Of a stretch of 56,242 nucleotides of DNA, positions 16,004 to 46,421 are shown piece by piece. The first letter of the stretch is position 1, and the number at the start of each line of letters is the position of its first letter. Source of the stretch: Nemertoderma westbladi. Taxonomy: Eukaryota > Animalia > Xenacoelomorpha. The DNA is taken from contig JAUCBJ010000819.1 in the NCBI GenBank assembly GCA_032718475.1, positions 1 through 56,242 on the forward strand, written 5' to 3'. Both the position numbers and the translations under genes were made by a program. The notes under the pieces were generated by a model. The model saw nothing but the letters and a program-made list of their open reading frames with translations. It was not told the origin of the DNA and did no database searches.

Positions 16004-16369
16004 TATTTTGTCGCGAAATTAAAAGCAATGGTAAAATAACAGCTGGTGTTCATGATGAAATATGGCTTAATATGTTATACACAGTCATAGTAAAACGTAA
16101 AGCTACCGCCTAACTTAGCAGGAGTACCTATATTACATATTCACATAGGATTCACTGGGAAGAGATATTCCGCTTGACGACGGGGTAATACCTATAGAAG
16201 GAAACTAAATTTGTTATTTGGCTCTATTCGTTGTTATTTATCTGGTTGTGCATCATGGGCATTTTTTATAAATATTCGGTAATCGCATCTTATATCTTGT
16301 AAACGTGCTTGATAATGAAATTATATAGTTCATATTATATTTTTGTTAGTGGTAGCAAAGTTTAATTTT

Positions 16370-16677: not shown

Positions 16678-16991
16678 CGGTACGCAGCAAACTTCGCCCG
16701 CGCGAAAGCTTCTCCCGCGTCCAATTTTCGCCCGGAACAATCTTCGCCCACAAAATCAGCATCTATCGCCCGGCGGAAACCTTCGCCCGCAGGCAAACTT
16801 CGCCCAATAAACAATTAATGTTTGGGTTAGAAAAAAACCATCTCTGTAACCTGCTCATTTCCCCCAATTAGTAACACCATCGTTTATTGTTTTGGTTAAA
16901 AAAAACCCGTCTCTTTTACCTGTTCCGGTAAATCGTGGGCGAAGGTTTCCCCGGACGAAGGTTGTACGCGGGCGAAGATTGCACCCAACCG
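16678..16991. mobile_element. MITE with imperfect TIRs and internal cttcgccc repeats
   Basis: cggtacgcagcaaacttcgcccgcg versus cgcgggcgaagattgcacccaaccg. Confidence 0.7.
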
Positions 16992-18340
16992 GAATTACTG
17001 TCTGATACCTTGTACGTCCGCTATTTACCTTCTCAGGGCCTCCCTGTTGCACCCAACCGGAATTACTGTCTGATACCTTGTACGTCCGCAATTTACCTTC
17101 TCATGGCCTCCCTGTTGCACCCACCCGGAATTACTGTCTGATACCTTGTACGTCCGCAATTTACCTTCTCATGGCCTCCCTGTTGCACCCACCCGGAATT
17201 ACTGTCTGATACCTTGTACGTCCGCAATTTACCTTCTCATGGCCTCCCTGTTGCACCCACCCGGAATTACTGTCTGATACCTTGTACGTCCGCAATTTAC
17301 CTTCTCATGGCCTCCCTGTTGCACCCACCCGGAATTACTGTCTGATACCTTGTACGTCCGCTATTTACCTTCTCAGGGCCTCCCTGTTGCACCCAACCGG
17401 AATTCCTGTCTGATAACTTGTACGTCCGCTATTTACCTTCTCATGGCCTCCCTGTTGCACCCAACCGGAATTCCTGTCTGACACCTTGTACGTCCGCTAT
17501 TTACCTTCTCATGGCCTCCCTGTTGCACCCAACCGGAATTCCTGTCTGACACCTTGTACGTCCGCAATTTACCTTCTCATGGCCTCCCTGTTGCACCCAA
17601 CCGGAATTACTGGCTGATACCTTGTACGTCCGCTATTTACCTTCTCAGGGCCTCCCTGTTGCACCCAACCGGAATTCCTGTCTGATAACTTGTACGTCCG
17701 CTATTTACCTTCTCATGGCCTCCCTGTTGCACCCAACCGGAATTCCTGTCTGACACCTTGTACGTCCGCTATTTACCTTCTCATGGCCTCCCTGTTGCAC
17801 CCAACCGGAATTCCTGTCTGACACCTTGTACGTCCGCTATTTACCTTCTCAGGGCCTCCCTGTTGCACCCAACCGGAATTCCTGTCTGACACCTTGTACG
17901 TCCGCTATTTACCTTCTCATGGCCTCCCTGTTGCACCCAACCGGAATTCCTGTCTGACACCTTGTACGTCCGCTATTTACCTTCTCAGGGCCTCCCTGTT
18001 GCACCCAACCGGAATTCCTGTCTGACACCTTGTACGTCCGCTATTTACCTTCTCAGGGCCTCCCTGTTGCACCCAACCGGAATTCCTGCCTGATACCTTG
18101 TACGTCCGCTATTTACCTTCTCAGGGCCTCCCTGTTGCACCCAACCGGAATTCCTGTCTGATACCTTGTACGTCCGCTATTTACCTTCTCAGGGCCTCCC
18201 TGTTGCACCCAACCGGAATTCCTGTCTGATACCTTGTACGTCCGCTATTTACCTTCTCAGGGCCTCCCTGTTGCACCCAACCGGAATTCCTGTCTGATAC
18301 CTTGTACGTCCGCTATTTACCTTCTCATGGCCTCCCTGTT
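16979..18340. repeat. 68-bp minisatellite, 20 copies
   Basis: Unit tgcacccaaccggaatt(a/c)ctgtctgataccttgtacgtccgctatttaccttctca(g/t)ggcctccctgt; contiguous, no spacers. Confidence 0.97.
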
Positions 18341-18538
18341 AATGCAATTGTGTTCTTTGTTATTTGAGATGACTTATTTTGCTAAATTTAAGATTTAAAA
18401 GTTTTTTAAATTTTATATTATTTTTTAAAAGTTTTTATAGAGAATTATCGATAACACGGGAAAGCCCGGGCCTATTGCAGAATTTTGAGTAAAAGCCAAT
18501 GTTTTCTACAGAGGTATTATTATTATTAATTACGTTAA

Positions 18539-21826: not shown

Positions 21827-24377
21827 CTTGTTTGTAAAGTTTTACGTTTACAGTGTGATGATCCGAGTGGCTTTGTTACACGAACGAACGTTAGTGAGTG
21901 AGTGAAAATAAAGCCACGAGGATCAGAACGCTGTAAAGTACTTCGCAACAAGTATGTATGTAGTTTTATTCCAAAATTGTAACATTACGAAATGATTGTA
22001 TATATATTATAAGTGATAGAAACTGCACAAATTATATTAGTTGCTGTATAAATAAATGTAAAAATGACATGAATAATGTTATAAATAAGTTACCTTATAT
22101 TTATGGTGGCGTGTAGAGCCATGTTATAATAATATACTACTACTACTACTAGGATCGGCATGCTGCATTGCAGCTGCATTTTTAAGAATGCTGTGCCGGC
22201 TTATCGACAAAATTGCACCGCCACAAATCCCTATCACCCATGACATTTGCTAGATCATCCGCATCTTCAAGGCCAGTGTCCTTTAAGATGCGTCTCAAGA
22301 AAATCATGAGCTGTCCACCATGCTTATTCACTCCATGAGGCTGCCAAAGTACAAGATTATGCACTGGCTGGTCCTCACGGCGAAAGCAAAGTCCTGCAAA
22401 GCGGAGGCGATTTTGTTCTAGTGTCAAGCTTGGGGGGACCAATGAAACACCTCCAATGTTATATAGTGTCTGGTTGGAGATGTGTGCATTGAACTTGACA
22501 CAATGAACCCGGCGTAGCATTCTTGTGAATGTGCCATCCAGAGATTTGGTGTCCTCAGCAGTTAGAGCCCAGCATGGACTCCCATAGAGGAGTACTGGAA
22601 CTACTGCTGCTCTAAATAACCGGACCTTAAGTTTCCGATTAATTCTCGGTGACTTCCAAATCCTGGAAAGCCTATTCAAGGCTGCCCATGCCTTTCCCTT
22701 ACGTATTCGAAGGTCCTCACCTGACTTCCGGATCCATGATCCCAGGTAACAGAAGTCATCAACATGCTCAAGCATACCATCTTTTGAGCTTATGCTCATC
22801 CGATCAGAGACTTGCTGAGGACTTTCAAAGTTAACTGTCAACATTTTGGTCTTTCTGGAGTTAATAAAAAGACCAACACTAGAAGCAGCATGTTCTAATG
22901 AGCTGAGGAGCCGTTGGGCTCCCTCTAGTGATTCTGAGAGTACTCCTAAGTCATCAGCAAAGTCTAGATCAGTTAGGTACTTGGCAGGATTGCCTCGACT
23001 TCTGGAGCCAGTAGGTGGAGTTATCATCACCCCATCATCATTATGATGATCTAAGGACATGCGTAGAACATAGTCAACAACAATTATGAACAAGAATGGT
23101 GCAAGTGTGTCTCCTTGGAGGACGCCCCATAACACTTCAAATGGTTCTGTGTTACCGTCAACAGTAGACACAAATGTTGTCGAACCATCGTATACTGATC
23201 TGATTGCTGCAATAATTTCATCAGGAATCCCATATAATGAAAGTATGCTGAACATACGTGAGCGGGAGACTGAATCAAAGGCCTTGAAGAAGTCAACAAA
23301 GATAACAGCCAGATGCCTGTCTTTCTTTTTTGATACCTCTTCCATTATCCTTCTAAGTGCCAAAATGGGCTCCATGGTCCCACGACCTTTACGGAACCCA
23401 TTCTGATTTCCACGGGGCAGTCTCTCAATGGGATCTCTGATGAGATTTAATAGAATTCTATTGTATAGCTTTGCAGCAATTGAGATCAATGAGATTCCCC
23501 GAAAAGAACCATAGAGTGTTAGGTTGCCCTTCTTGGGAACTGGCACCAACTTATTTGTTTTCATTTCTTGTGGGACTCTTGTTGTACGGTACATGTCTAC
23601 TATGATGGGATAGATGAGCTTTAAACATTCAGGTATTTTAAAGACCTCAGGGGGAACACCATCTACTCCACTGGCACGATTGGTCTTAATGCTCTTTGCA
23701 GCAGCCTTCACTTCTGCAAAGGAGATATCGCCAATGGGAATATCTGGGAGTACAGACTCAGACACTTTTACTTCTATAAAGTTATCAGGCAATACCCTGT
23801 CATTATTGAGGAGCTTTTCAAAGTGGGCCTTCTAACCATTGAGGCGATCGGCTGGTGATTCAGCCTTAACCTTGGTGGTTGGTTGGCTTTGTCGACCAGC
23901 AAGCAAGTTGATCGATCTCCATGCCTGGGATGATTGCCTGCTGTCGTCAGCATCATTGATGGCATCAAGCTGTTGGTTTATTAGCTCCTGTAAATTAACC
24001 GAGTACTGCCTGTTCAGGGACCTAGATGCAGCCTTAACTGCATTCTTGGCCGCTGTAGTCTGTTATATAATAATATAGCTAGGCCCTACTGGTTATTCAT
24101 AGCTATACCCCGTCTACCGGTAGGTAATGCAGTAGGCCTATCTGGCTGTCAGGCAAATATCCACCTATTGTTTACGTGGTAACCAATGACGGCGTTAAGT
24201 AATGTCCTCTAAGGGGACATTACTTAACGGATAACACCAAATTTCCAAATACAATACTAATAATGTACTGTACAGGCCAATACAATGCTGTAATGTCCTC
24301 TAAAGTTGTAAAGTGCTAAATAACAACTCGCTGTTAATACAAACGGCTTTGAGTAATGTTACAATTTTGGAATAAAA
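21827..24377. mobile_element. Unclassified non-autonomous DNA element (long terminal hairpin plus 25-bp inverted repeats) hosting an RTE insertion
   Basis: Imperfect hairpin at about 21825-21953; ttttattccaaaattgtaacattac at 21964 is inverted at 24353-24377. Confidence 0.55.
22137..24065 (-). mobile_element. 5'-truncated RTE-clade LINE (family RTE-b) with RT domain
   Basis: ORF 22182-23792 with KASGVDG-like, QNGFR, FVDFFKAFDSV, GVLQGDTLAP, DFADD and YLGS motifs; (TAG)n tail; TSD tataataatata at 22125-22136 and 24066-24077. Confidence 0.95.
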
Positions 24378-24876: not shown

Positions 24877-25723
24877 CACGTTAATTAAATATATATTGAA
24901 TATTATAGAATTAACAGAAATTAAATCAATATTGTGCAAATATTGATTCAATATACAAACATATTGAATTAATAATTTCAAATATTGAATCAATTTTCGC
25001 ATTTAATCAATATGTTGACATGTTGGCAACATATTGAATCAATATTCGCACATATTGAATCAATAAGTTGACATGCTGCAACATATTAAACCAATATATA
25101 ACATGCTGGCAGCATATTAAAACAACATGTTGGCAACATATTGAATCAATATTCGCACAAATTGAATCAATATATTGAAATGTTGGCAAGATATTGAAAT
25201 AATATGTTGACATCTTGTCAACTTATTAAAACCATAATATGTTGGCAACATATTGAATCAATATTCGTACATATTGAATCAATATGTTGAGTTGTTGACA
25301 ACATATTGAATCCATATTCGCATATATTCAAGCAATATGTTAAACATGCTGGCAATATATTAAAACAATATGTTGGCAACATATTGAATCAATATGTACC
25401 ATGCTGGCAACATATTGAATCAATATGTAACATGCTGGCAACATATTGAATCAATATGTAACATGCTGGCAACATATTGAATCAATCTGTAACATGCTGG
25501 CAACATATTAAAACAATATATTGGCAACATATTGAATCAATATTCGCACATATTCAATGAACACGACGTTTAATGCCACATATTGATTCTATATTAGAGA
25601 ATATTAATTCAATATGTTTGAATATTGAATCAATATTTTGCACAATATTGATTGAATTTCTGTTCATGATTGAATTTATGTTAAATATTGAATATTCAAT
25701 ATATACAGTATTTAATTAACGTG
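24877..25723. mobile_element. TIR element (CAC termini, TA flanks) filled with a ~30-bp AT-rich minisatellite
   Basis: ta|cacgttaattaaata ... tatttaattaacgtg|ta with ~100-bp imperfect TIRs; internal unit atattgaatcaatatgtaacatgctggcaac. Confidence 0.8.
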
Positions 25724-27300: not shown

Positions 27301-28774
27301 CAGAGGCGTAGCGAGACCTTCTCTGGCGCCCAGGGGAATTTTTCATTTCATTTTTATTCCAGACATTGAATTATACAATATATTATTACATTATTTTAGT
27401 AAAACATTATTTATAAACATTATACATCATTTATAAAATTGAGCACAATTATTGAATTATTAAATACATACTGCTACTGTACCTACACTACGGAAAAATA
27501 ATTTACATAGAGCCTAATATTTAAACAAATTGGTGGGACCGTATTATTGACACACTTCGAAAATTCTAGACACCATATGGCATGAAGCTGATCCCCCATT
27601 CAATAATTTTAACTTTTCATTTATGGCGGTTTTTTTAAATATTATATAATATTAAAAAAAACATCTAAAAAAACAGTTTACTAAAAGTATATAACTATAT
27701 CAAATCTATTTTACATAAGTTTGATATAGTGAAATTATAATACAGTATATTGATTGGCGAGCGAAGTGAGCAAAGACAATTTTTACATTTTTCGCTTATG
27801 ACACATGTCCTGTACCGGGTGTTCCATAATGATTGCCCCCCACCCCCTGGCCAGCCAAAACTGTCAGACATGCACCTTAGTGTAATTTACCATTCGAAAG
27901 AGAATTTAATTCTGAGCTTGCATGCAGAAATTTAGGGTCCAATACAAAAGTATAAAAATTTTATAGGCTATTCTTTAAACCTATCTTACTTTTCAATATT
28001 TTGTGATTTAAAAAATATAATTTACCCAGCGTTAGTCATCTGCTTTACAGCCATGTTTCCCCTTTGCAGCACGGGGAGCTCCTCGGTAGTGGCAAAGGAT
28101 GTTGGCCCTTAAAAGGGGCGTTTTAGTTTGAGTTTAGTTTGATTATGCCACAGAATCACGACCCTCTCTAAAAGTAACATCTCTGATCCTGTCAACCTTA
28201 CGTTTTTCTTCAGAGTCATCGAAGATTGCACTGGAACTTGTCATTTTAATTACTTCTGTTAGGCCTAATTCAGTAAAATTACCAAATTTTAACACTAATA
28301 CCGGTAACTGAATACTGTAATATATTGGAATACAGCAAAAGTCAGGCAGTAATAACTGTTTAAACAGAGCTGCAACCGGCAAAGCTGATGGCTAACGCTG
28401 GATAAATTATATTTTTTTTTAAATTGTGATTAAATCACAAATATTGAAAAGTAAGATAGGTTTAAAAAATTTCCTATAAAATTTTTATACTTTTCTATTG
28501 GACCCTAAATTTTTGCATGCAAGCTCAGAATTAAATTCTCTTTCGAATGGTATATATCACTAAGGTGCATGTCTGACAGTTTTGGCTGGCCAGGGGGGGG
28601 GGGGGGGGAATCATTATGGAACACCCGGTATACTGTATCATAATCCCTGAATTTTCACTGATTTGTCTTAAGTTTACAAGAATACAATGATATTTGCCTG
28701 GCATTTCAGCGCCACCCGCCCGGGTGAGAGCGCCCGGGGGAACATTCCCCCCCCCCCCCCTCGTTACGCCTCTG
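27301..28774. mobile_element. Non-autonomous hAT-type element
   Basis: TIRs cagaggcgtagcgag / ctcgttacgcctctg; 8-bp TSD cgatggat (27293-27300, 28775-28782). Confidence 0.9.
27815..28628. mobile_element. Tc1/mariner-type MITE nested in the hAT element
   Basis: ta|ccgggtgttccataatgatt ... aatcattatggaacacccgg|ta; TIRs about 235 bp. Confidence 0.9.
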
Positions 28775-29021
28775 CGATGGATCATCAAATGGATCAATCT
28801 TGCCCAACTCAATGTGACGGATGATGGAGCTCAGATTTTAGTTGTATTAATTTCATGTTCCTAAACTACTTACTAAACACAATGTAGGATGACTTGGTGA
28901 GATGATCAGCGATAGTTAACTGTATGTAATGCCAGAAACAAAACAATCCTAAATAAAAAAAAACACTTTCTAAGTTCGGTTTTTTCTCACCACGAAGGAT
29001 TGGATACCATATATACTTAAG

Positions 29022-30918
29022 TATAGAATTATATTCCCTAAATGCCGTGGATTTTCAAAATTTTATTTTATTCGGATTAACTTTGTAAAGATTGCTTTGA
29101 GTTCTCATTCGTATTGGTTCTATCATTTGTACATCTATCGGTCAAGTGGTTCAGTAGCTCAGTCGGTAGAGCGTTGGAAATTATATGTGTAGTAGGTATT
29201 GAGTTCGAATCCTAGTAAGTGCGAATTATTTTTTGTACAGAATTTCAACTCATTTAAATTAACCGCTACAAATTAATTGCATTTATCTGTACCAATGAGA
29301 CTGTAGTTATTTGATTGTAACCAATGTCGTGCAAGTTATATATTAGCTGGACCAATAGCTATCTTTAAAACCTTGTTAGAACCCATAGAACAATCGAGAA
29401 TTTTCTCGATTGATTGCGGCACAAATTTGCTATATAAAGGTGCGATTTGTTCATTAGTTATTCCATTTTCTTATTCTCTCAGTTATTCAGTTATCTGATA
29501 TTTGTTTATTCTGTCATTAGTTTTCAGATTACATTGTATTATAATTATATCTTCTGTAATAAAGTCAGAATTATCGCTAATCTGCTTTTCCTATCTGTTT
29601 TACTATGATTCACCACGGTGAACCCAACTAAGGGACAGGATGGCAGGCTAGAGATCGGGCCGCAGCAATGAACGGGAACATCACCGGAATGTAGACGAGA
29701 GACAACCCGCAATACCATCTAGAGTTATTCGCCCATCGCCTGAAAGGTTAGAGGGCGTTCGATCCTTGCTACCTAAGTGTAAGACCAAAAGATCAAAAGG
29801 TAGACGTAGTGACACGCTGTAAGCCTAAAATTACATCTAAGGGACTGTACTGTCTTGATTCAGGAAAAACCGCAGTAGACCTTCATATTCCTACGGGAGG
29901 GAGAGAGAGCAGAGATACTAGTACGCAGATAGGACGTAGGCACACCGGTACGAAGCATACAAATTGGTTAGGGTGCAGCAAACTGTACGCTTAACTCTTG
30001 CTAAGTACAGGTGCGTCTGTGACTATTTGCCGTACAACGGTGTCCATTACATCAGAACTTGTAGGCTAGGAGGGTTATTGTGTTTTCACCTGAATTAGGA
30101 TTGTACCGTTCAGGCGGTAGGGCAGTTTACGTACTAGGCGCAAATAAATTGAGGCTATTAGGGATACTAACATCTACCGTGTCCCCGCCAACGCCCTGAT
30201 AGGAAGTTACCTGGACTACCTGGGTGACTAAAATTCTAGATAGGACGCCAGGATAGCTATTAGTAACTGTACGCCTACAGTAGTAAACTAACACATCTCT
30301 TCTTAGTATCAGGGACCTGGTACCTAAAATTGCCGAATTCTGGGCGTAGTATTAACCTTATGCCTGAATTTGAGTCCTGGAAATACGCAAGAGGGGAAGG
30401 AACCTTATCATTCGTGAGTATTGGACCTACAAGTTACAAAATTAGAATATTCGTAAAATGCACACCGTACCCAGTAATTATATATGTGAAGGAGCAAAAC
30501 TGCTTTTGACCGTTCAGAATTAACACACGCGCGTTAGAAATTATTTACACCTCAAAATATATAAAATTAACTTTCGTCCTTACTGCACTTTGCTCGCTAG
30601 TTAGACATCTCCAAATCTCTGCCTGTACCTAGCTAGCGTCCCTTTGCCCAACCATATAAATCACACCGCGGCAAAGTATACGAGCCCCTTAGTCCGTCAG
30701 CGAGTCAGCCTGATTTTAGGATTCGCTGCGCGGGATTTTGTTTTATCGAAGTTTGTCTGCTCGTAGACTGTTTTCTGCCTCACCGGTTATAAGAGATCGA
30801 TACTGCAATATATTCGCTTACTTAGAGTTTACTGTTTTGGTGAGAAGGTCGGATTTATGATTTGATTCACAAACTTTACAGTAGGATATTGCAGGTATTG
30901 TTGCTGTCTCTTCGAATA
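29022..30918 (+). repeat. 5' LTR of element C (1897 bp)
   Basis: tatagaatt...ttcgaata; TATA at 29431; AATAAA at 29558 and 30143. Confidence 0.95.
29148..29234 (+). ncRNA. tRNA-like Pol III cassette inside the LTR (second copy 43378-43464)
   Basis: Box A tagctcagtcggtagagc with intact D-stem, box B gagttcgaatcc, then a T6 run; acceptor and anticodon stems do not pair. Confidence 0.55.
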
Positions 30919-30929
30919 GTAGGAATATG
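30919..30929 (+). promoter_or_regulatory. Candidate non-tRNA primer-binding site
   Basis: gtaggaatatg directly follows the 5' LTR and is the exact reverse complement of catattcctac at 29884-29894; no TGG-type PBS present. Confidence 0.55.
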
Positions 30930-31728
30930 TTTTACTGAACTACGGTTCGGTAGGACTAAAGTTATTTGAAAATTTTGTATTTTGAGGTAAAAATTTATAT
31001 TTGATTAGCTGAGTGCTAATTTTTTGAAATAAAATTTGATTTGAACCGCGTGTAAAATATTTTTGGAATTGAATACCGGTGTTTAAAAAGGGTTTAAATA
31101 CCATATTGTACCGGTACAAAATTTTCGTAAAAGTAAAACCTAACTCTTTTGTTTTTCAGGATTCAGAACTCATTTCTAGACTGTAACGGGAGCAAGACCG
31201 TGTTTAGCAAGTTTGGGAGATAGATAACTCAACAACTTTGGTTGGGAAAATCGCGTTTCGTCCGCAACGTTAAAAACGGAAAGGTTCACGTCCGGTTTGT
31301 ATCTGGGAATCTGTTTTTCTGGAGAATTATTGGAGTGGGTGAGTTCGAAAAGTTGCATAAATAAGTTAGGCATTACCGTATTAGTTAAAATTATTGTGGG
31401 TTCCACTGTCTCAAGTATTTATGCATTCCGTATGATTTCTTTGTTCATTGCTGAATTAGTCCGTATTATTGTATTTAATTTACCTTTTGATAACGCATAT
31501 CGTTATCCGATTTATTTGTTATAAAATTGGCCGCTAGGCTAATTTTATTATATACTTATTCCGTGACATTTATTTGCTGTAAAATTGGCCGTTTAGGCTA
31601 ATTTTATCCATCTGCTATAAAATCGGCCGGTAGGCTAATTTTATATGACTGTAATTAGTACCGTTTAGATATAAATACGGTAAACTCGATACTTTGACAC
31701 TCACTCCACTTGACTTACAACTACCGAA

Positions 31729-34700
31729 ATGAGTGACAAACAAGACTATACGAAGAATACACAAACCGACTATGACTCGTGTGACGCGGATAAGTCAGCA
31801 GCGGAGGAACAACAGGGGAAGACTCGCGAGCCTACCGAACCTACACCGTGTGCGTCACCAGTACATCCAACGGGAGTACCGGATGCCGTAGTACGAGGCG
31901 ACGGCAGGACCGAGGACTTTCTAACTGTTCCGCAACCTAGATACAGGGAAACGGACATGGTAAGTTCAGCAGGAAGTCAGGAGAGCGTGGTTAGAAGCGT
32001 CGGTGGATACATGGCGCATATTACCAGGAGTATTGGAGAAGGCCAACGCATATTAGACGGGTTGACCGCTCCTATGTCTCGATTCGAGTTCTACACCCTC
32101 CAGGTTAGAGTACAGAGTAAAGTATATAAGTCCGTAGATAATCTAGTTGGCCTACAAGATCTAGCTAGACAGAGACAGGACATGGATACTCAACTTAGAA
32201 TCCTCGGGAAACTAATGATCGCTAGAGAGAAACTGATTCAGTTTAAGTCGACGATTAGACGGATACAACAGGAACAAGCGGACCAGTTGTTAGGTGAGTC
32301 AGTTTCGGACGAATTATTACAGCCCGAGGAAGAACAGGAACTGTACCGACTGGATGGACAATTGAAACATCTGACGGACCACTTACGTATGTGCGGCGAA
32401 GACGTCGGCGATTTGGAAACCGTGCCGGAATATACGAGGGAAACTTCACCCGTACGAATCGAATCGGCACCGGGAATGCTGGACCAATCGTTAGTGAGTA
32501 TTCGCAGCGAAATTGGCGAGATAAGTATCGTGACGTCAGAAATTTCCAGACAGCAACAACAACATGATAGACAACAACGGGAAGCGGAGGAACAAGCTCA
32601 ATTGTTGACGGCACAAGCGGCGGTAGAAGAAGAAAAACTACGTGTTGCGAATGTTGCAAGAATCTCTCATCTGCAAGAACAAGCCGAGTTGGAAGCGGCC
32701 GAGATGGAAAGGTTGGAGTTGGACATCGCCCAACAAGCAGCAGCGGCCGAGTTAGCGCGACAGAGGTTAGTATCAGAAGCGAGAGCCGAGATGAAAAAAC
32801 GGCAAATAAAGGCTCAGTCAGCTATACGACAAGCAGAGTTCGAGGCGCAACAACAACAAACGGAACAACGCGAGAAAGAAGTTAAACTTCATTTCGAACT
32901 CGGGAAGAAGGCGAGAGAATTAGCCAACGCGAAGGAAGATCTGGATCTACAAGCCCGCGATCGATCGATGAGATCTCGAGATGGACATGACTTGGACCAG
33001 ATAGAGGTAAGACATCGCCAAATTCAGGAACGGAAGAAGGAAGGAAGCGTAGGAGCACCCGGACGGGAACGACAATTAGTAAAGGACTTGTGTCAACGAT
33101 TCCCACAGGTAACTCATATGTTTGCACCGGTTACGACTAAGGAACCTGTTTCGATTGCGGGTAGTAGTAACATTTCTCCTATCCATGGTGCGACGGAACA
33201 CAGGTTTGTTATTCCGGACGAGTTTACACCGCCAAGAGCAACGTCGTCGCCTATTCCAAAAGTCAAGGTAAGTAACCCACCGATTACAGATCGTAGTAGT
33301 TTATTAGTCGAACCTGCACTACTGACAACTAAACAGGTGAGTCCACCGTCGACACCTAAACCTGTTACACACTACGCTTATCCAATGACGTTTCGACCCA
33401 CAAGGCCAGTTGTTTCAAATGCTGTCATTCGCCCACCGATCAACCAATTTGCATCGCAATCTACGACTTCGAGGAAGACTTGTGAGCCTACCGAACAACG
33501 GAGAACAGTGGAGACGCGACCATTCAACCAATTTACATCGCAATCTACGACTTCGAGGAAGACTTGTGAGCCTACCGAACAACGGAGATCAGTGGACGAT
33601 GTTCCGAAACGAAACGTGAGAATTCGTACGACGCAACGAACGCGAGCACGTCAACCACCATATCCAGATGATAGTAGTACTTCGAGCGAATCGGATTACC
33701 CGAAACGCGAGGTATTTAGAACAGGGGCGGCCGATGAATATAAACGCGAGCGTTCAGACAACTCCTTTGCAGACAATCCTCCACAGAATACACCAACACA
33801 GAAGGCGTTACAACCAACGGACGCAATTAGTACACAACAGTTCGCCGACATCCTGCGACCAGTTGTTAATAAGTTGGCTCAGATCGAGGAACGTCTGGAG
33901 GAAGTTCAAACCGACAGTTCGAGAAATTCCGAATTCGAACACAATAGACACCCGAAGGAACCACAAAGACCGGTACCTTCAAACCCCACATCGTATCAGG
34001 GAAAAGCGCCAAGAAGGGATATCAACCAGCGTACCAACCAAGGACGCGAAACTCTGAACGTTGCCGAGGAGATAGCGAAATTCGCAGCCAGACAAGGATT
34101 GCCGGTACAACAACCACCGAAGTTTTCCGGTAGCTCAAAACACTGGCATACTTTCGTAGACTATATCGAATCCCAGATCGCCGTGTGCGCCTTTACATCA
34201 CGGGAGAAGTTCAATTACCTGCTCCAAACGTTGTCAGGAGAACCTAAACGTTTGGCGGAGACTTTCGTCGGTGTACCGGACGCTTTCGAACTAGCGTACG
34301 ATCGTTTAACTTCGATATACGGAGGTACAGTTAGTATGGCCAGGTCAGTAATAGAGGAACTCTGTAAGGGAGGGGCTATCACTAAACCCGTCGACTTATT
34401 AAAACTAGCTGACGAGATAAAAAACGCTATCACTACTTTAAAATCCATTGGACAACTTGATTACGGGAATACCCCTACAGTCCTATTAAAGATCATAGGA
34501 CGACTCCACCATCGACTTCGTCGGGAGTGGAGAAAGGTCGAATACCAGCGAGAAGAGCGGGGAGGATTCTTAAAATTAGAAGATGTGTACCTTTTAATAT
34601 CCAGGGAGGCGGTAGTAGAAACTCGATCTAACTACACCGACCAGCACATCGTGGCAGAAGGGATCACATTGCCATCCTCCAACCGACAAAAACCCCAGAC

Positions 34701-37700
34701 AACATCCACTAAGACGGCCACTTACACCACACCGACGGAATCACGACAATTCTCGGACGGTAGTAGGGTATCTGCGCCCATTGGGACAAAACAGACGAGA
34801 CAACAACTCGGTACCGACTTCAGCGGCTGCCAATACTGCGAGCATCTAGGCAAGCGGTATATCGGTCACAAGTTTCGAGGTTGTCGACAATTTCGCGAGT
34901 TGAACTCGGAAGAACGACGGCTGCAAATACGGCCATTGGACTCTTGTTGGCGGTGTACGCGACACGGACACGTCCGTAAAGATTGCCCAAATACCGACAC
35001 TTGTCCATCCTGTGGACGCAACCACGACGGTCTGCTCCACACAGACAGCCACACGCCGACGAAACGCTTCGCCAGGGAACACCCGGAAGCAGCAGCGAGA
35101 TGTGATGCGGCTTACCGAAAACGAGAATCGAAAACGACTCCAACCTTCGTGACCCATATTGAGGATTGCTTCTCAGAACAATCCGGATCGTCGGACGAAG
35201 AATCAGAAGACGACGACGAATATTCCAATGGAGACGAACAACCGTCGATTGCGCTTCTGACTACTGACCAACTGAAGGGATTCAGTGTAATTCCGATTAA
35301 GGTTACTGGCACAAAGGGGAGCAAAAGAATCTACGCGATTCTAGATTCAGCCTCATCTCATAGCTACGTGGATGAAAAGATAGCTGACGTAGTGACGGAT
35401 CTTAAACAAGGTAAGCACGTCAGTTATACCGTAAGTAGTATGCACGGACAGCGTGCAATACCAGTGACACGAGTCAAGTTAAACTTAGACTCTCTTCTTC
35501 CAAAATCGCAGCACAGCGAGAGGGAGAGGTCTTTGTTACCTTTTAGAGATCTAACCTTTGCGGCCACGAAGGACTTTAGTAACCTACTAGGTCCAGTGCC
35601 GGAACAATCTCTAGAGGACCGTAAGTATTTCAGACACCTTGGTGTACCCGAATGTCCTGTCAATTATAGATCGGTAGCAATGCTGATCGGGACGGACCAA
35701 TTCAACCTACATCAGGTGTGGGAAACCAGACCATCGGCAGTTGTAGCGGGAAACGCATACGCCTGCAGAACGCCGATAGGGTGGTATACTCGAGCGCCTG
35801 TGCGCACACTAGACGTAAGTGACGAGGAAGACGATGTACAGAGTACATGTAGTTTATTAACTACAAATTCAATTCATTCCTTCTCACACGACGTGAACCA
35901 TACTACACTACAGTCGACAAAACATAACAGACGTGTAACTAGTATGATAAGTCACAAGGAGCAGCTAATCCACAAGGTGAGTTTAGAACTTGGGGAGAAG
36001 ACGAGTCAGCTAGAGATTCCATCGACGACAGATGATAGGCTTGCGAGTCTACCTACCCCAACGACATCAACAATGCCCGTCGATATCGATGATGACGCGT
36101 TGAGAAATCATCAAATGGAACAAGCCGCATTGGACAAAGAATTAACGGAGAAGACTATCAGGTGGTTAGAACAAGATACAGCTGAACCTGGTAGCTACGA
36201 ACCTTGTATGTCGGAACAGGAGAAACAATCTCTGAAGATCATGGAAGATACTATCCACCAGACGAAAGACGGACATTATGAGGTAGGGATGTTATGGCGT
36301 AGCCAAAGTCCTAAACTTATAAACAACTATCCACTAGCCTTGAGACGTCTACACTCAATACGGCAACGTCTATTAAAGGACGAGAAAGCCCATCTGCAGT
36401 ACAATACTCAGATGGAGACGTATTTGACTAAGGGATATGCTATCCGAATGACTAACCCGGAGATAGTGACTGACCAAACATATTACTTGCCACATCACTA
36501 TGTGAGACACCCCGATAAACCAGACAAAGTACGCGTAGTCAATGACTGTGCGGCTCTGTTTGAGGGAATGTCCCTCAATAGTGAGTTGATGGATGGACCA
36601 AACATGAATAATTATCTTATGGGGGTGATTATGCGCTTCCGTCAGCGTCAAGTAGCCTTTACATGTGACGTTGAAGCGATGTTTCACCAAGTGAGAGCGT
36701 TAGAGCGAGACAGAGACAGTTTGCGGTTCCTCTGGTACCCGGAAGGAGACTTAAGTCTACCACCAGCGACTTACCAAATGCAAGTTCGCGTTTTCGGTGC
36801 CAGAGACAGCCCAAATTGCACGATGTACGCCCTAAAGCAGGCCGCTAGAGATCAGAAACATCTATATGACCCAGAGATAATTAAAATCGTAGAGCGTGAC
36901 TTTTACGTTGACGACGGTTTACAGAGTTGCGACACAGTAGAACGTGCTACAACAGTAGCACATCAATTACGGGACTGCTTAGCGGGCGGAGGTTTTAACC
37001 TCACCAAATTCGCCTCAAACAGTGCCGAATTAGTAGACTCATTCGGGACGACTGAGCGTGGAGGTGGTGACATAGACCTAGAGTTCGAACCACTACCGAC
37101 GACCAAGGTGTTGGGGCTCTTTTGGGACCCAAACACGGACAACTTCCGAGTGAAGGTGAGACTGGACAGTCAAGAGAACACACTGACAAAGAGATCATGC
37201 TTGTCAAAGTTGAGCCGATTGTTCGATCCGTTAGGATTCATCAGTCCAGTAATACTGCAAGCTCGCATTTATATGCGCAGTATTTGGAAGGATGGACTAA
37301 CATGGGACGAGCCGATCTCATCAGACCAAGTGGACTTATGGAAGACCTGGGAGGCGGAATTATCTTCGCTAGAGGATTATTCCATACCCAGGGTTTACTT
37401 TCCATTACAAAGTACATTTCCTGACAACTTGGAATTACACTGTTTTTCTGACGCCAGTGACAACGGTTTTGGTGTGGTAGCGTACTTGCGCAGACAAGTA
37501 GACTCAGACGAGTTCGATGTTTCGCTCATTACTTCTAAGGCTAAGACCATGCCTACTAAGTATATGACGACACCACGAGCTGAGCTACAAGCCGCAACCC
37601 TGTCAACCACCATCGTGAACCTCATACAGACAGAACTACAGTCGAGTTTACAGATATTTTATTGGACTGACGCGACGTTGGTTTTATTTTACATAAACAA

Positions 37701-40308
37701 CGACACGCTTGAATTCAAGACATTCGTAGCTAACCGTCGCGCAGAAATTCTAGATCGTTCAATAAAAGAGGATTGGCGACATTGTCCCGGACCACAAAAC
37801 CTAGCTGATATTGCGTCGCGAGGAATGATGCCTGAGGAATTCTGTAAACCGGAGAACAAAGAATTTTGGCAACACGGACCCCAGTTCTTGCAGAAATCGA
37901 CACAAGATTGGCCTCCGTTATACGACAACAAGTCTAACACCATCCCTAAGGACGCCGAAATCAAGAAACCAAAAAAGGGGAAGACAAAGAAAAAGACAAC
38001 GGCGGTCAAACTCAAGAAAAAACCGAAGGCGAAATGGAAAGATATAACTTCAAAGGTCAAGAGAGGAAGACTTGCGAGCCTTTCTACACCAGACATATCG
38101 CCAGACGGTCAACCAGACACGTTACTAGACGGTCAACCAGACGTTTTGCCAGACATATCACAAAATGTTCTACCAGACACTAGTGACATACTGACAAATA
38201 GTAAAGCCGCAGTTTCCCTATTGGAGCGGCCTTCTATCGACAAACAACCAGATACGTTACCAGACGTATCGCCAGACACATTACTAGACAGTCGACTAGA
38301 CATTTTGTCAGAAACATCACAAAATGTTCTACCGGACATTAGTAATGTATTGACAAACAGTAAAGCCGCAGTTTCCCTATTGGAGCGGCCTTGTATTGAA
38401 AAACTACCAATTTTGACACACTTGAGCAACCATAAGCACGGTGAAACCTCATGTATTACAGATGTGGGTAGTACCTACGCTAATGTAAATACAGGTGTTA
38501 CTTTGCGCTCAAGAGACATACCAAACTTGCAACCTATGGTGAGACCTGGGATTAATGTCGGCAGAAAATTAAGTTTACCGAAACCTGCTGACCCCATAGA
38601 GTTCAAACCACCATTAACGATCGACTTACAAAGTACTGACGATCAAGGTAAGAAGACGAAGAAGGACAAATTACTTGTAGACCCGGACGGATCAACAGTC
38701 AACAAGGGAATACTTACCGGCGGACCCGTGGGCCCTTCTAGTAATTCAAAACCTTCCAAAATCTCCATTGACTTACCTGATGACGTCACAAATACTTACG
38801 TCGACCGTATTGTAAACCTAACAGATTCTTGGTCAAACGCTTGCCGAAAATTAGCGTGGATTGTACGTTTTGTACAATACGTTAAAGGCAAACGTGACTT
38901 TACACGTCGACTTACATTGGCTGAGATTGACAGGTGTGAGATTAAATTAATTCGCCATTACCAACTGCGATATTTCGCGCGCGAATTCACATCTATAAAT
39001 CAAGGTCAACCAATCAAGTCGTCACCAATACTGAGTTGGAGTCCGATTATTTATAATGGCTTAATTTGTCATAAATCACGGCTTCAAAACATTGACTTTA
39101 ACACAAACTTTAGGTACCCAATAATAATACCGCAACACCACGAACTACAACATGCAATGATACTGGACGCACATCTACATCTGAAACACGCTGGAAGACA
39201 CCACTGTCTTTCCTACTTACGTACTAGATTTGTATTAATTAGACCCAGTAAAGCATTAAGTTCAGTGACACGTACGTGTATTATTTGTAAAAAGGTACAT
39301 TCTAGAATAGGTACCCAAGAAATGAGTGAACTACCACAAGCACGACTTCAAGCATTCAGACCACCTTTTACAGAGACTGGAATTGATTGCTTTGGTCCCA
39401 TACATACGAAACGTGGACGCATACTAGTAAAACGCTGGGGACTGATTTTCACATGTATGTCCAGTAGGGCAGTTCATATTGAACGTGTGATGGATCTTTC
39501 CACCAACGCGTTTATACTAGCACTGCGGCGATTTATCGCCAGACGCGGACTAGTGAAATGCTTGTACTCAGACCAAGGGACAAACTTTGTTGGTGCTCGG
39601 AATGAGATTGCTAGAGCCTTTAAGAAATTAGATCATGATCAAATCTCGAACGAACTACAACCTCACAAGATTGTTTGGAAGTTTAATCCTCCAGATAGTC
39701 CTTGGAGAGGCGGAGTCTGGGAGAGATTGATTAGATCTATAAAGACGGCAATGGCAAAGGTCATTCCAGTAAACCACATACTGACAGACGACCAACTGAC
39801 AACACTGTTTGTTGAAATCGAGGCAATACTAAATACTAGACCAATAGTATTAGTACCCGATGACAAACAATCTCAGTTCGCTTTGACACCGGCACACCTG
39901 CTAATGCAGGCACCGACGACTTTGATGCCTATTTCTATTCCAATAGAAAGCGACAGCTACGGTAGAAAAGCGTGGAAAATCACGCAACTACTGGCTAACA
40001 AATTCTGGGAAATATGGCAAAACCATTATTTGCCCTCTATTTCTGCCAGAACAACTTGGTACAATAACACCCGCGCATTAAAGCCGGGAGATCACGTGCT
40101 GTTAGCGGAAGTGAATCTAAAAAGACGCTTCTGGATAACAGGTGTCATTTTAGCCACACATCCATCTATGGATGGAGTGACAAGAACTGTGACAGTACGG
40201 ACAATTGACGGTCGTACAGTTGACAGACCGACTCAACGTCTCGTACTTCTTGAAGAGACTCGTAACGAGTCTGGAGACTACAAATCTCCACCTAATACTA
40301 GTAAATAA
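31729..40308 (+). CDS. gag-pol: Bel/Pao Gag-Pol polyprotein, 2859 aa
   Basis: Gag core PPKFSG..W..F / EKFNYLL..L.GEP; three Cys/His knuckles; protease AILDSAS; RT YLPHH..KVRVV and FYVDD; RNase H LHCFSDAS, YWTD, NLADIASRG; integrase HHCC, GIDCFGP, SDQGTNF, GGVWERLI. Confidence 0.98.
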   Translation: MSDKQDYTKNTQTDYDSCDADKSAAEEQQGKTREPTEPTPCASPVHPTGVPDAVVRGDGRTEDFLTVPQPRYRETDMVSSAGSQESVVRSVGGYMAHITRSIGEGQRILDGLTAPMSRFEFYTLQVRVQSKVYKSVDNLVGLQDLARQRQDMDTQLRILGKLMIAREKLIQFKSTIRRIQQEQADQLLGESVSDELLQPEEEQELYRLDGQLKHLTDHLRMCGEDVGDLETVPEYTRETSPVRIESAPGMLDQSLVSIRSEIGEISIVTSEISRQQQQHDRQQREAEEQAQLLTAQAAVEEEKLRVANVARISHLQEQAELEAAEMERLELDIAQQAAAAELARQRLVSEARAEMKKRQIKAQSAIRQAEFEAQQQQTEQREKEVKLHFELGKKARELANAKEDLDLQARDRSMRSRDGHDLDQIEVRHRQIQERKKEGSVGAPGRERQLVKDLCQRFPQVTHMFAPVTTKEPVSIAGSSNISPIHGATEHRFVIPDEFTPPRATSSPIPKVKVSNPPITDRSSLLVEPALLTTKQVSPPSTPKPVTHYAYPMTFRPTRPVVSNAVIRPPINQFASQSTTSRKTCEPTEQRRTVETRPFNQFTSQSTTSRKTCEPTEQRRSVDDVPKRNVRIRTTQRTRARQPPYPDDSSTSSESDYPKREVFRTGAADEYKRERSDNSFADNPPQNTPTQKALQPTDAISTQQFADILRPVVNKLAQIEERLEEVQTDSSRNSEFEHNRHPKEPQRPVPSNPTSYQGKAPRRDINQRTNQGRETLNVAEEIAKFAARQGLPVQQPPKFSGSSKHWHTFVDYIESQIAVCAFTSREKFNYLLQTLSGEPKRLAETFVGVPDAFELAYDRLTSIYGGTVSMARSVIEELCKGGAITKPVDLLKLADEIKNAITTLKSIGQLDYGNTPTVLLKIIGRLHHRLRREWRKVEYQREERGGFLKLEDVYLLISREAVVETRSNYTDQHIVAEGITLPSSNRQKPQTTSTKTATYTTPTESRQFSDGSRVSAPIGTKQTRQQLGTDFSGCQYCEHLGKRYIGHKFRGCRQFRELNSEERRLQIRPLDSCWRCTRHGHVRKDCPNTDTCPSCGRNHDGLLHTDSHTPTKRFAREHPEAAARCDAAYRKRESKTTPTFVTHIEDCFSEQSGSSDEESEDDDEYSNGDEQPSIALLTTDQLKGFSVIPIKVTGTKGSKRIYAILDSASSHSYVDEKIADVVTDLKQGKHVSYTVSSMHGQRAIPVTRVKLNLDSLLPKSQHSERERSLLPFRDLTFAATKDFSNLLGPVPEQSLEDRKYFRHLGVPECPVNYRSVAMLIGTDQFNLHQVWETRPSAVVAGNAYACRTPIGWYTRAPVRTLDVSDEEDDVQSTCSLLTTNSIHSFSHDVNHTTLQSTKHNRRVTSMISHKEQLIHKVSLELGEKTSQLEIPSTTDDRLASLPTPTTSTMPVDIDDDALRNHQMEQAALDKELTEKTIRWLEQDTAEPGSYEPCMSEQEKQSLKIMEDTIHQTKDGHYEVGMLWRSQSPKLINNYPLALRRLHSIRQRLLKDEKAHLQYNTQMETYLTKGYAIRMTNPEIVTDQTYYLPHHYVRHPDKPDKVRVVNDCAALFEGMSLNSELMDGPNMNNYLMGVIMRFRQRQVAFTCDVEAMFHQVRALERDRDSLRFLWYPEGDLSLPPATYQMQVRVFGARDSPNCTMYALKQAARDQKHLYDPEIIKIVERDFYVDDGLQSCDTVERATTVAHQLRDCLAGGGFNLTKFASNSAELVDSFGTTERGGGDIDLEFEPLPTTKVLGLFWDPNTDNFRVKVRLDSQENTLTKRSCLSKLSRLFDPLGFISPVILQARIYMRSIWKDGLTWDEPISSDQVDLWKTWEAELSSLEDYSIPRVYFPLQSTFPDNLELHCFSDASDNGFGVVAYLRRQVDSDEFDVSLITSKAKTMPTKYMTTPRAELQAATLSTTIVNLIQTELQSSLQIFYWTDATLVLFYINNDTLEFKTFVANRRAEILDRSIKEDWRHCPGPQNLADIASRGMMPEEFCKPENKEFWQHGPQFLQKSTQDWPPLYDNKSNTIPKDAEIKKPKKGKTKKKTTAVKLKKKPKAKWKDITSKVKRGRLASLSTPDISPDGQPDTLLDGQPDVLPDISQNVLPDTSDILTNSKAAVSLLERPSIDKQPDTLPDVSPDTLLDSRLDILSETSQNVLPDISNVLTNSKAAVSLLERPCIEKLPILTHLSNHKHGETSCITDVGSTYANVNTGVTLRSRDIPNLQPMVRPGINVGRKLSLPKPADPIEFKPPLTIDLQSTDDQGKKTKKDKLLVDPDGSTVNKGILTGGPVGPSSNSKPSKISIDLPDDVTNTYVDRIVNLTDSWSNACRKLAWIVRFVQYVKGKRDFTRRLTLAEIDRCEIKLIRHYQLRYFAREFTSINQGQPIKSSPILSWSPIIYNGLICHKSRLQNIDFNTNFRYPIIIPQHHELQHAMILDAHLHLKHAGRHHCLSYLRTRFVLIRPSKALSSVTRTCIICKKVHSRIGTQEMSELPQARLQAFRPPFTETGIDCFGPIHTKRGRILVKRWGLIFTCMSSRAVHIERVMDLSTNAFILALRRFIARRGLVKCLYSDQGTNFVGARNEIARAFKKLDHDQISNELQPHKIVWKFNPPDSPWRGGVWERLIRSIKTAMAKVIPVNHILTDDQLTTLFVEIEAILNTRPIVLVPDDKQSQFALTPAHLLMQAPTTLMPISIPIESDSYGRKAWKITQLLANKFWEIWQNHYLPSISARTTWYNNTRALKPGDHVLLAEVNLKRRFWITGVILATHPSMDGVTRTVTVRTIDGRTVDRPTQRLVLLEETRNESGDYKSPPNTSK

Positions 40309-40974
40309 TTAGGAGTTTACAAATAGATTTCCACGTACCTGTACACTGTAGTAAGGACAGCGGTAGAATTCCATTGTCTTTATATGTGAACATTGAGGGT
40401 AGTACCCTTATGTGTCACATAGGAGCGGGATTTGTAGGTATAAGAAATGGAATTCTACTTGGAACTCACAATATTGAGACATTTTCGAAATTTTAGACAA
40501 TCCATTTGGATTTGAAAAATTTTTAAAAAATTTTCTCCAGTGAATAGATTTCAGGGTACAGTCGGGTGGAACTTAAAATTAGAGAAACAAGAGAGGAAGA
40601 CTTGCGAGCCTTTCTTAAAATTTTAATTAAATTTTACACGGTCTTGTTTCAATAAGTTACATCAAATAAATAGACTCCCCTATATTTATTACTAATTCTT
40701 GACTGCTTATTTTCTGATAATAGTTTGGGATCAAAAAGTGAGTATTTTAGACTCACAGCCAGTTTAGCCCAAATTCGTTTTTTATTTCGGCAAAAAATTT
40801 TAGATAAGAAGCAGCGTGTCATTAAAGAAACCTTAGATCTTAGGCTATGGGTAGGAGGTTAGAGCGTTGTCGAAGCCCAAAAGGCAGACGAAACTCTCAC
40901 GTCTCCTCACAACTAACCACAAACTCTGTTGTATTCCCTCTAGTAGTAATGATTATGTAACTACACCTCTAATT

Positions 40975-41157
40975 ATGGAGAAAGGGATACAAGGAGAGCC
41001 GAGATGGGGATATGATATTCAAGAGGAAGCGGCAGCTTCATTCGAAAGATTTGGAGCTAAAGATTACACTATATTTGGAATAAAGGAATTATCAGAAAGT
41101 ACAGCGAAACTCGCAAACACTAAATATGACACGACGTATCGTGGAGATTACGGATGA
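40975..41157 (+). CDS. Small 60-aa ORF overlapping the start of the zinc-knuckle ORF
   Basis: ATG at 40975 (MEKGIQGEPRWGYDIQEE...); overlaps 41126 by 32 nt in another frame; no recognisable motif. Confidence 0.3.
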   Translation: MEKGIQGEPRWGYDIQEEAAASFERFGAKDYTIFGIKELSESTAKLANTKYDTTYRGDYG

Positions 41158-42184
41158 ATCACGGCAGACGCGCGCGCCTATCGGTCACCTTGGTGATGAT
41201 TTCGAAGTAACTACTACGATCGCCGACGATCCTTTAGAGGAACTTCTTGAGATAGAAAGGAACCTCCCGAAGAAATCTCAGACGGAGATTCGACAACTTG
41301 AAGCAACAGATGCTATAGTTTGTATACAACCTTCAGAAACCTACCAACCCATAGACCCAGATGATTACGATTATAGTATGGGAGGAAGCGCTCGACCGAT
41401 TGGGGATCTTATATACGAACGAGTATGGTACCCTGCCAATACGATGTGTAGTAAATGTGGCGTCGCTGGACATCATATGGCAAAGTGCAGTGGAAAGCAC
41501 ATTACTACGACTCAGCTAATCTGTGGATGGTGTGGGGATCAAGGGTCTCATACCTTTTATACTTGCTGGAGATTTATGGCTCAATGTACTTACTGCAATA
41601 TAAAAGGACATCGAGCATCTGAATGCCAACTAAGAGACATACCTTATGAACACGAATCTGTAAAACTCGTGAGGAAATTATTTGACGAGTGGGAAGATTT
41701 AGCCGACGAACATGTATCAGCACAAAGAAGACGGTTTCCGATGAGAGCGCATCTCGGATTTTGGGCGGTAAATCCTCAAACGATGATGTCGGAAGGATAT
41801 ATCTCCGCTATGCCCCAATATGACGAACTTATCGAGGTTGTCGATATTTTGCCCCACGACAGCGGATTCCGAGTGGTGCGCGAGTATCTGTTACAAATTC
41901 ACCCGGATAACAAAAACACATGGAATTTTCAGAAAGTCGTTAATCGGATTACGTATGGTGAATTCGATCGTTTCCGAACTGAAAAGCGGAACAAGGGAGC
42001 TTGGTTAACCGTCGCATGGGCGTACCGAGCCGCGTTTTACCACAAACGTATACGAGCGAGCGTATTCGAGGAAGAGGAGGTCCTAGAGGCGACAAATATA
42101 CCAGCCACTCCGGTTGCGCCGTCTGCACGTCACCCTCGGGAGGACGGACAGGGTAGGATCATACGGGTCCAGAAAGTGGGCTAA
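41126..42184 (+). CDS. Accessory triple CCHC zinc-knuckle protein of element C, 352 aa
   Basis: Acidic N-terminus; CSKCGVAGHHMAKC, CGWCGDQGSHTFYTC, CTYCNIKGHRASEC; then FDEWEDLAD...RR...LGFW. No obvious signal peptide or TM segment. Confidence 0.85.
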   Translation: MTRRIVEITDESRQTRAPIGHLGDDFEVTTTIADDPLEELLEIERNLPKKSQTEIRQLEATDAIVCIQPSETYQPIDPDDYDYSMGGSARPIGDLIYERVWYPANTMCSKCGVAGHHMAKCSGKHITTTQLICGWCGDQGSHTFYTCWRFMAQCTYCNIKGHRASECQLRDIPYEHESVKLVRKLFDEWEDLADEHVSAQRRRFPMRAHLGFWAVNPQTMMSEGYISAMPQYDELIEVVDILPHDSGFRVVREYLLQIHPDNKNTWNFQKVVNRITYGEFDRFRTEKRNKGAWLTVAWAYRAAFYHKRIRASVFEEEEVLEATNIPATPVAPSARHPREDGQGRIIRVQKVG

Positions 42185-42577
42185 CAATTGAAGAAAATTA
42201 TTAATGTAGAAGAACGCAAGGGAGTTGAGCCGACTATTCGAGTTACTCGGGATACGGTATCGCTTCCAAGAGAACCAGTAGGAGGGTCGGGACATACACC
42301 AGCTGATCAACAGGGGGCGCAAGCTACTCTTGGGTCTGCGTCGTCCGCTTCTCGCGCGTTCCCAGACGTTCTACCAACTGTAGTGACAACTGATCGGTCA
42401 CGAGGAATCGGTCGAGGTTTTGGGATGCCAAATAGACGAATTTGCGAGGAAATAGTCGCACCGTCTCTCAACGTCCAAACGAAACCAGTGACTCGCCCCA
42501 CGAGTCCCATATCGCGAGCAAAGTCACCTGTGCGCAGTTTTCGAGGACGCGGCAGGGCTCGATCAACTAAGCGATAA
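42185..42577 (+). CDS. In-frame 130-aa Arg-rich extension behind TAA-CAA-TTG (possible readthrough domain)
   Basis: Same frame as 41126; ends RSFRGRGRARSTKR*. Confidence 0.5.
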   Translation, partial: QLKKIINVEERKGVEPTIRVTRDTVSLPREPVGGSGHTPADQQGAQATLGSASSASRAFPDVLPTVVTTDRSRGIGRGFGMPNRRICEEIVAPSLNVQTKPVTRPTSPISRAKSPVRSFRGRGRARSTKR

Positions 42578-42679
42578 AAGGGAGGGCAAGGGTGGACGGA
42601 GGACTCGTGAGCCTTTCTTGTGAATTTGTGATTTATTTGAATTATATGTTTTATATTTAGAAAGTTTTGTATTCTGGAA

Positions 42680-42945
42680 AAGACTCATATTTAGTAAAAC
42701 TTATATTTAGTAAAACTTATATTTTATATTTGTGCTTATTCCGAACTTATGCAATTTATATTATTCCGAACTTATGAAATTTAGAAATAAGAACTTATAT
42801 TTTAGTAAAACTTATATTTAGTAAGACTTATATTTGTAAGAATTTATATTTTATATTTGTGATTATTCCGAACTTATGCAATTTATATTATTCCGAACTT
42901 ATGCAATTTATATTGTTCCGAATATTATGCAACTTATATCTTATA
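42680..42945. repeat. AT-rich tandem repeats in the 3' UTR of element C
   Basis: ttatatttagtaaaac and ttattccgaacttatgcaatttata units. Confidence 0.8.
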
Positions 42946-43251
42946 AGCAGTATTTGTATTTACAGTGAAACAGAAATATTTGTAATTGTTTGAATTTATG
43001 CAATATTGAGATGCAATAGATTTATATTGGTGAATTTAATTTAGATTTATATTGTACTTACTTAGTAAAGCCTTAAATACGTAAAGTTTGAATTTGTAAT
43101 TATTTTGTATCGAATCATTACGTAAAAAGGAAGTATTGTTTGAAATTTAATTGTAAATATGTAAGTACGCCCTAAGTATTCTATAGTTTGATTGATTATT
43201 GGTGAAAACCGTATATTTTATGCACGATAATATCCTGTTTTCATGGAGCGG

Positions 43252-45156: not shown

Positions 45157-45314
45157 TTAAGTTTTAAGCAAAAGCTTGTGAAACGGCTCCCCCCAGCATT
45201 AAGTTGTGGGATTTCCAGGCTAGGTTTTTAGTATTAATTTAAGTAATGTTGTTTAGTCACGCACACAGTAGGCATAGATACAGTAGTAAAAACAATAAAT
45301 AATTTCTTACTTAC

Positions 45315-46091: not shown

Positions 46092-46421
46092 CTATAAAAT
46101 ATGAATAATGAAGAAATAGTTTAACATCATTATTTATTATTTAAAATAATATTTATGTTCCGTTAGGAATACACTAAAAGGACTGAAATTAATGAGAATG
46201 CATCAAACTCTTAAAATGCTATTACTGCTATTACTAAATTGCTATTATTAAATGAGAAAAACAAAACAGGACAAAATGTTGAAGATAAAATGTTTATGGT
46301 AGAATAACTAAAATTAAATTATAGAACAACTCTAAGACGTTGTAGTCAACCTCCGTCACGGAGCTGGTAGAGTCAGATGTCTAAACATCTCGAACTACAT
46401 GGGTAGAAGACTTCTCACCAG

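Follow-up and report, generated by a model that had tools for sequence, protein, structure and literature searches.

Architecture of the element and its surroundings

The window, by which we mean the whole 56,242-nt stretch of Nemertoderma westbladi DNA that was analysed, contains an intact Bel/Pao-type retrotransposon of 16,135 bp at positions 29022-45156; no further copies of it were found elsewhere in the 56,242 nt. Inspection of the flanks revealed a 5-bp target-site duplication, TTAAG, on the left (29017-29021) and the right (45157-45161), to which no strand applies. LTR alignment defines a 5' LTR of 1897 bp (29022-30918, + strand, like every stranded feature described below) and a 3' LTR (43252-45156), with 1887 of the 1906 aligned columns identical and a single 8-nt gap. 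In the contigs of the sequencing runs, loose ends of the flank type at 29021 and 30918 agree with the 5' LTR borders; four such runs show that the element exists in multiple copies and numerous variants, including subfamilies about 82% alike. The LTRs begin with TAT and end with ATA, and not with the TG..CA that forms the usual termini of LTR elements (PMC12440569, in part). An alternative reading of the borders, with a 4-bp duplication and an LTR that starts with G, is possible; it is less symmetrical than the TTAAG version. The TA..TA termini of the window element (29022-29024 and 30916-30918) may be set beside those of one relative, L026, which are TG..TA.

A single uninterrupted gag-pol open reading frame (31729-40308, 2859 residues) encodes three Cys-His boxes, a protease, a reverse transcriptase (RT) with the YVDD motif, RNase H and an integrase. 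The order of the Pol domains, PR-RT-RH-IN, and their Pao-type Pfam profiles place the element with Bel/Pao, as do the triple Cys-His arrangement of Gag and the YVDD motif, both described for this group (PMC554778, in part). The polyprotein matches Peptidase_A17, DUF1759 and DUF5641 in Pfam, the same set that is found in its top homologues; these are 39-44% identical across RT-RNase H, and those that are named come nearly all from marine invertebrates. Against homologues about 1900-2100 residues in length, the polyprotein shows long insertions, and its reading frame contains tandem duplications at 38088-38405 and 33435-33596 (spacing 159 nt and 84 nt, respectively). Downstream lies an extra open reading frame (41126-42184, 352 residues from the first ATG) with zinc-knuckle-like motifs that fall below the Pfam cut-off; it is not env-like by Pfam, and a comparison with proteins of 201-641 residues found no homologue at E<=0.001. 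The internal region ends in a weak polypurine tract that is short and interrupted (43242-43251); the tract given for Belpaoviridae by the ICTV is about 10 nt (PMC8742986).

The ICTV description of Belpaoviridae also specifies a primer-binding site (PBS) of 18 nt to which tRNA-Arg or tRNA-Gly binds by its 3' end, an LTR length of 0.2-1.2 kb and genomes of 4.2-10 kb (PMC8742986). The window element shares the single gag-pol frame, the domain order and both motifs with that family, whereas its 16.1 kb and its 1.9-kb LTRs lie outside the size ranges, and it differs further in its TA..TA ends, in the unrelated extra reading frame and in the want of a TGG-type PBS. There is no TGG within 8 nt of the window LTR end, nor is an 18-nt site for tRNA-Arg or tRNA-Gly present there. 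The element is, in short, Bel/Pao-type by its Pol and departs from the family description in its PBS.

The remainder of the window is rich in repeats. Tandem arrays occupy 13031-16100 (8-nt units), 16843-18434 (68-nt units), 9984-10165 (7-nt units) and 12716-12909 (20-nt units). Non-LTR retrotransposon fragments with RVT_1 and DUF6451, which include inverted pairs that are 97% identical, lie at 7918-8524, 22135-23831, 46355-49160 and 54831-55772. Two inverted-repeat elements, MITE- or foldback-like, are found at 24884-25693 (with internal AT-rich subrepeats) and 27836-28604.

Primer-binding site and its complement in the LTR

The predicted PBS (30919-30929) begins with GT at offset 0 after the LTR and is the exact complement of a contiguous segment within it, the predicted self-primer (29884-29894, ending in AC). 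An earlier note on this DNA had claimed this perfect complementarity at a site lacking TGG, and had observed that the 3' C of the oligonucleotide pairs with the first base past the LTR; the match is indeed exact, and both its position and its orientation are those required for priming. Within the window the 11-mer occurs at 29884 and in the 3' LTR copy (44122-44132), and nowhere else. The AC end and the GT start at offset 0 are the same features that mark the related elements with a predicted primer at a splice junction (see below). A split primer, assembled by splicing, was not found in the window LTR; the primer here is contiguous.

How far such a match could arise by chance depends on the rule that is applied. 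The figure of about 5e-4 proposed in the earlier note sits inside the range of 2-9e-4 obtained on recomputation, in which Markov models of order 0-3 give expectations of 2.4-6.2e-4 for an 11-nt match, and 11 of 12,321 internal positions (9e-4) have a complement of at least 11 nt in the LTR. Under a looser published rule, which accepts 10 nt at offsets 0-5, the chance rises to 1-2%, and when split matches are permitted 5 of 300 positions reach the same length in the window LTR. Because of these last two values, the 11-nt match taken alone is suggestive, not decisive.

Several further features of the pairing were considered. Extension of the duplex past 11 nt (at least 21 bp with loops, -28.5 kcal/mol) was equalled by 11 of 60 random internal 42-mers and was discarded. 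A purine tract (29895-29909) lies directly past the predicted cut; it was not seen after the primer in relatives and was likewise dropped as a conserved cut signal. The primer-PBS helix appears in one of four predicted folds, the one that begins at 29884, while in the other three the PBS pairs locally with the end of U5. Between 30830 and 31000 nine places vary with a share of at least 1%, one of them inside the PBS: 30927 A>G, at about 30% of contig depth in runs X1, X2 and X3, keeps the pairing as G-U. This variant gives only weak support to self-priming, since transitions are the commonest change. Among the positions displayed, of which 29886 is not one, no compensating change was seen in the family.

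The end of the LTR appears to have a history of its own. Located 38 nt inside the present end (30875-30891) is what was probably once the LTR terminus (..ACA), accompanied by a PBS-like copy, and loose ends in run contigs show that in some other family copies the LTR end bears one more PBS-like repeat. The PBS-like copies in 30875-30918 and in these other copies suggest that the LTR has grown by capturing its PBS, and capture of the PBS into U5 could also be the origin of the TA end.

The U3 region contains a tRNA-like relic (29148-29235, second copy 43378-43465) comprising an A box with a D-arm-like hairpin (29155), a B box (29203) and a T run. A real tRNA gene in the LTR was sought and rejected, with no hit from ARAGORN and four chance-level Rfam matches (E 6.8-9.4). 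It could be argued that a Pol III transcript of this segment is the primer: both promoter boxes and the T run are in place, and the region forms the second-best duplex with the PBS area. That duplex, however, pairs downstream of the PBS, off the LTR edge, at an energy within the control range, and the tRNA-like segment in the LTRs of Helenus elements is not complementary to their PBS (PMC10886601, in part). We regard a Pol III primer as highly improbable. As in Helenus TRIMs, tRNA-like sequence is located within the LTR; Helenus, in contrast, is non-autonomous and tRNA-primed, whereas the window element is autonomous and its segment degenerate (PMC10886601, in part). The segment could serve as a Pol III promoter or an insulator.

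Complementarity in related elements

Relatives were collected by a metagenome scan, from which the best 80 of 524 confirmed stretches, representing 79 loci, were retained; they are 38-45% identical to the window element across RT-RNase H. A search of viral contigs yielded no locus. The set includes no tRNA-primed Bel/Pao control. In 14 of the 79 loci the LTR's 3' end could be fixed from both copies by self-comparison. A second set of 17 loci, to which L043 and L078 were moved as their ends were unclear, has the LTR start alone fixed, and the other 48 loci were left unscored. All counts below refer to these best 80 of 524.

None of the 14 anchored loci has TGG within 8 nt of the LTR end. Contiguous complements of the PBS reach at most 9 nt in them, and yet in 12 of the 14 a complement of 10-15 nt is found across a GT..AG intron of 67-186 nt in the element's own LTR, forming solely at the exon-exon joint (L007, L020, L025, L026, L037, L040, L045, L057, L059, L068, L069 and L077). 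In each of these loci only 0-1 of 300 null positions reaches the same length when split matches are allowed. The 12 loci represent 11 families, between which the letters vary while complementarity stays. The two misses, L050 (6 nt) and L035 (7 nt), apply to the LTR copy used; L045 and L068, family mates of L050, have the match, and L033, the mate of L035, has a perfect contiguous 10-mer. In the second set 15 of 17 loci match over at least 10 nt (13 split, 2 contiguous), the exceptions being L029 and L043. This evidence is weaker than that of the anchored set, because the LTR end was picked by fit and there is no null; several of the loci also repeat families already counted. AC forms the end of the predicted primer in 11 of the 12 anchored and 14 of the 15 second-set matches, and also in the window.

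These relatives bear on the proposal that the window element is primed by a small RNA of the host, such as a tRNA half, and that the match in the LTR is due to chance or purely structural. Primers of the tRNA-half type exist in Copia-type elements (PMC6317226, PMC10886601, both in part), the looser matching rule leaves the chance of 1-2% given above, and PBS-like words recur in the window LTR (29192, 30881). Unrelated tRNA halves would not, however, be expected to track each LTR, and 12 of the 14 anchored loci match their own splice joints with differing letters and a common AC end. A host small RNA is, in our judgement, distinctly unlikely to be the primer.

A quick tree of 25 of the 79 loci, the window element and one outgroup puts the window element on a long branch (1.72), without a settled placement, beside the family of L033 and L035, which has no intron (SH-aLRT 89, which is not reliable here). 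The long branch and loose placement indicate that the relatives are distant. The window element is thus a member without an intron in a group whose signature is widespread, and its link to the other members is a distant one. The earlier note had inferred that self-priming arose independently in this element. Its first half, self-priming, draws support from the lack of a tRNA-type PBS, the priming geometry and the complements in relatives; the second, independent origin, is not supported, as the signature is present in most readable relatives, mostly across an LTR intron. Self-priming is predicted to be a lineage-wide trait, not one that is independent to the window element.

Transcription, the proposed priming route and known systems

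The likely main Pol II promoter of the LTR consists of three CCAAT boxes (29292, 29321 and 29352) and a TATA box (29431), spanning 29292-29438, from which transcription is likely to start near 29460. Of the two AATAAA signals, the first (29558-29563) is located upstream of the primer segment; the second (30143-30148), 248 nt past the primer end, would give an R region after the cut if it is used. The TATA box and both AATAAA signals were already listed in the earlier note, and all are present. TATA-like words also occur within U5 (30558, 30655).

One contig of run X4, at a depth of 250, shows a GT..AG intron (29747-31159) whose excision takes out the primer segment together with the PBS; the joint of 29746 to 31160 is absent from X1, X3 and X5. 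Among the runs listed as containing the element, none is recorded as RNA. Although recorded as 'DNA?', X4 is RNA-like, with the GT..AG joint, an A>G-rich contig and an adapter-like loose end, which we take to be a template-switch adapter. The spliced molecule is likely to be the gag-pol mRNA. It should be emphasized that contigs carry no information on RNA starts; the splice from 29746 nevertheless places the beginning of a transcript upstream of the 11-mer, in agreement with the caveat of an upstream start raised in the earlier note. Compared with X1, X4 shows greater contig depth over U3 and less beyond about 29550 and 29746; such depth is a measure that cannot rank the parts of a gene, and no conclusion is drawn from it. 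In the same run a contig covering 30072-30775 has many A>G changes of which X1 and X3 show next to none, a pattern that editing of double-stranded RNA would be expected to produce, and the adapter-like loose end at 30857, 62 nt before the LTR end, may be an RNA 5' end or a reverse transcriptase stop.

The earlier note favoured a start at 29884-29885, and a second start there, as in Tf1, could make a genomic RNA whose first 10-11 nt prime while the upstream promoter makes mainly spliced mRNA. A YYANWYY initiator-like match does overlap the 5' end of the primer, as the note had claimed, but the word occurs 20 times on the + strand of the LTR; no TATA lies at about -30, the nearest TATA-like word being at -453, with the three CCAAT boxes before the TATA, such that the strong promoter is about 450 nt upstream. 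The lone helix-forming fold began at 29884, and Tf2 separates copyable from non-copyable RNA by alternative starts (PMC5341516, in part). Among the relatives, L037 has a TATA exactly 31 nt before its primer, in keeping with a start at the primer, whereas in four further relatives the nearest TATA-like word is at -64, -88, -120 and -135; L020 has its sole such word at -277, and 15 of the 21 relatives examined have none. From the words 64-135 nt before the primer in several relatives, internal primers look common among them. We consider a Tf1-like start unlikely in the window element.

It could also be proposed that the pairing is an inherited RNA structure for packaging, dimerization or splice control, the element being primed by another route. 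Local hairpins compete at the PBS, and both sites fall within one intron, as might be expected of such a structure. In every positive relative, however, the complement lies at the priming position (offset 0-5) and with priming polarity, and this reading appears very unlikely.

The reading that we favour, by a modest balance of probability, is that the window element primes minus-strand DNA with an internal segment of its own unspliced RNA; that it is self-primed by one means or the other, from an internal segment or from a Tf1-like start, is quite probable. RNA starting at about 29460 would fold such that 29884-29894 pairs with the PBS, and a cut after the final AC (29894), for which the element's own RNase H is the likely enzyme if Tf1 is a guide, would free a 3' OH. 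A 5' fragment some 435 nt long would then carry the primer at its 3' end, and the primer would not be the first 11 nt of the RNA, as it is in Tf1. From 30918, synthesis of strong-stop DNA would proceed back as far as 29895, and the product would then transfer to the identical sequence of the 3' LTR. For this the element would need either an RNA whose end lies past 44133, as the second AATAAA would provide, or a further, uncut copy of the RNA on which priming takes place in trans. The splice of 29746 to 31160 would delete primer and PBS together, leaving an mRNA that cannot be copied. The AATAAA at 29558 is a difficulty for this route, since, if it marks the main 3' end, priming in cis would proceed without an R region. 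In HIV-1 a splice donor suppresses such a signal; the splice donor 190 nt past the first AATAAA could, speculatively, suppress that signal in both LTRs here.

Extending this route to the lineage, we tentatively suggest, with somewhat less than even confidence, that a large lineage of animal Bel/Pao elements has lost tRNA priming and lets splicing decide whether an RNA serves as genome or as message. Most members would build the primer by removing an LTR intron, while the giant member in the window would carry a ready-made internal primer, cut by RNase H after AC, and an LTR splice donor that deletes primer and PBS for the mRNA.

Currently Bel/Pao elements are described as primed by host tRNA, and their replication as poorly understood (PMC8742986). 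Titles and abstracts of the open literature, to which our survey extended, as distinct from subscription journals, Repbase and supplements, yielded no report of Bel/Pao self-priming. The accessible portions of PMC3118150, PMC554778, PMC6238403, PMC3601003 and PMC12440569 make no mention of it, and that of PMC11042837 adds nothing further; the supplements of PMC3118150 and PMC6238403 could hold notes on PBSs. A parallel with an own-tRNA primer in Cer7 of C. elegans was not confirmed by the literature consulted and was set aside. While self-priming itself is known from gypsy and copia elements, the predicted Bel/Pao instance is thus likely to be new as far as the literature found extends. If it is correct, Bel/Pao would be the third self-priming superfamily beside these two, would probably escape silencing by tRNA fragments, and, through an internal or splice-built primer, would employ a mechanism different from that of Tf1.

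In the plant lineages TAR (Copia) and Tcn1 (gypsy) self-priming has been predicted from complements of at least 10 nt located 0-5 nt past the LTR, a rule that the window element satisfies; those lineages belong to other superfamilies, and a splice-built primer is not described for them in the accessible text (PMC6317226). In Tf1, Tf2 and Tj1, members of the Tf1/sushi group (Metaviridae, Ty3/gypsy), the element's own RNA contains an LTR segment that complements the PBS and has to be cleaved before it can prime (PMC4600332, PMC5341516, both in part), and a role for RNase H in cleavage of the Tf1 primer is cited in PMC4600332 (in part). The window element resembles these elements in that it has no tRNA PBS and that its PBS complements part of the LTR in the orientation needed for priming. 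It differs from them in a Pol that is Bel/Pao and not Ty3/gypsy (chromovirus), in a primer that probably lies inside the RNA, some 425 nt from its start, and in having relatives in which the predicted primer is mostly assembled by splicing.
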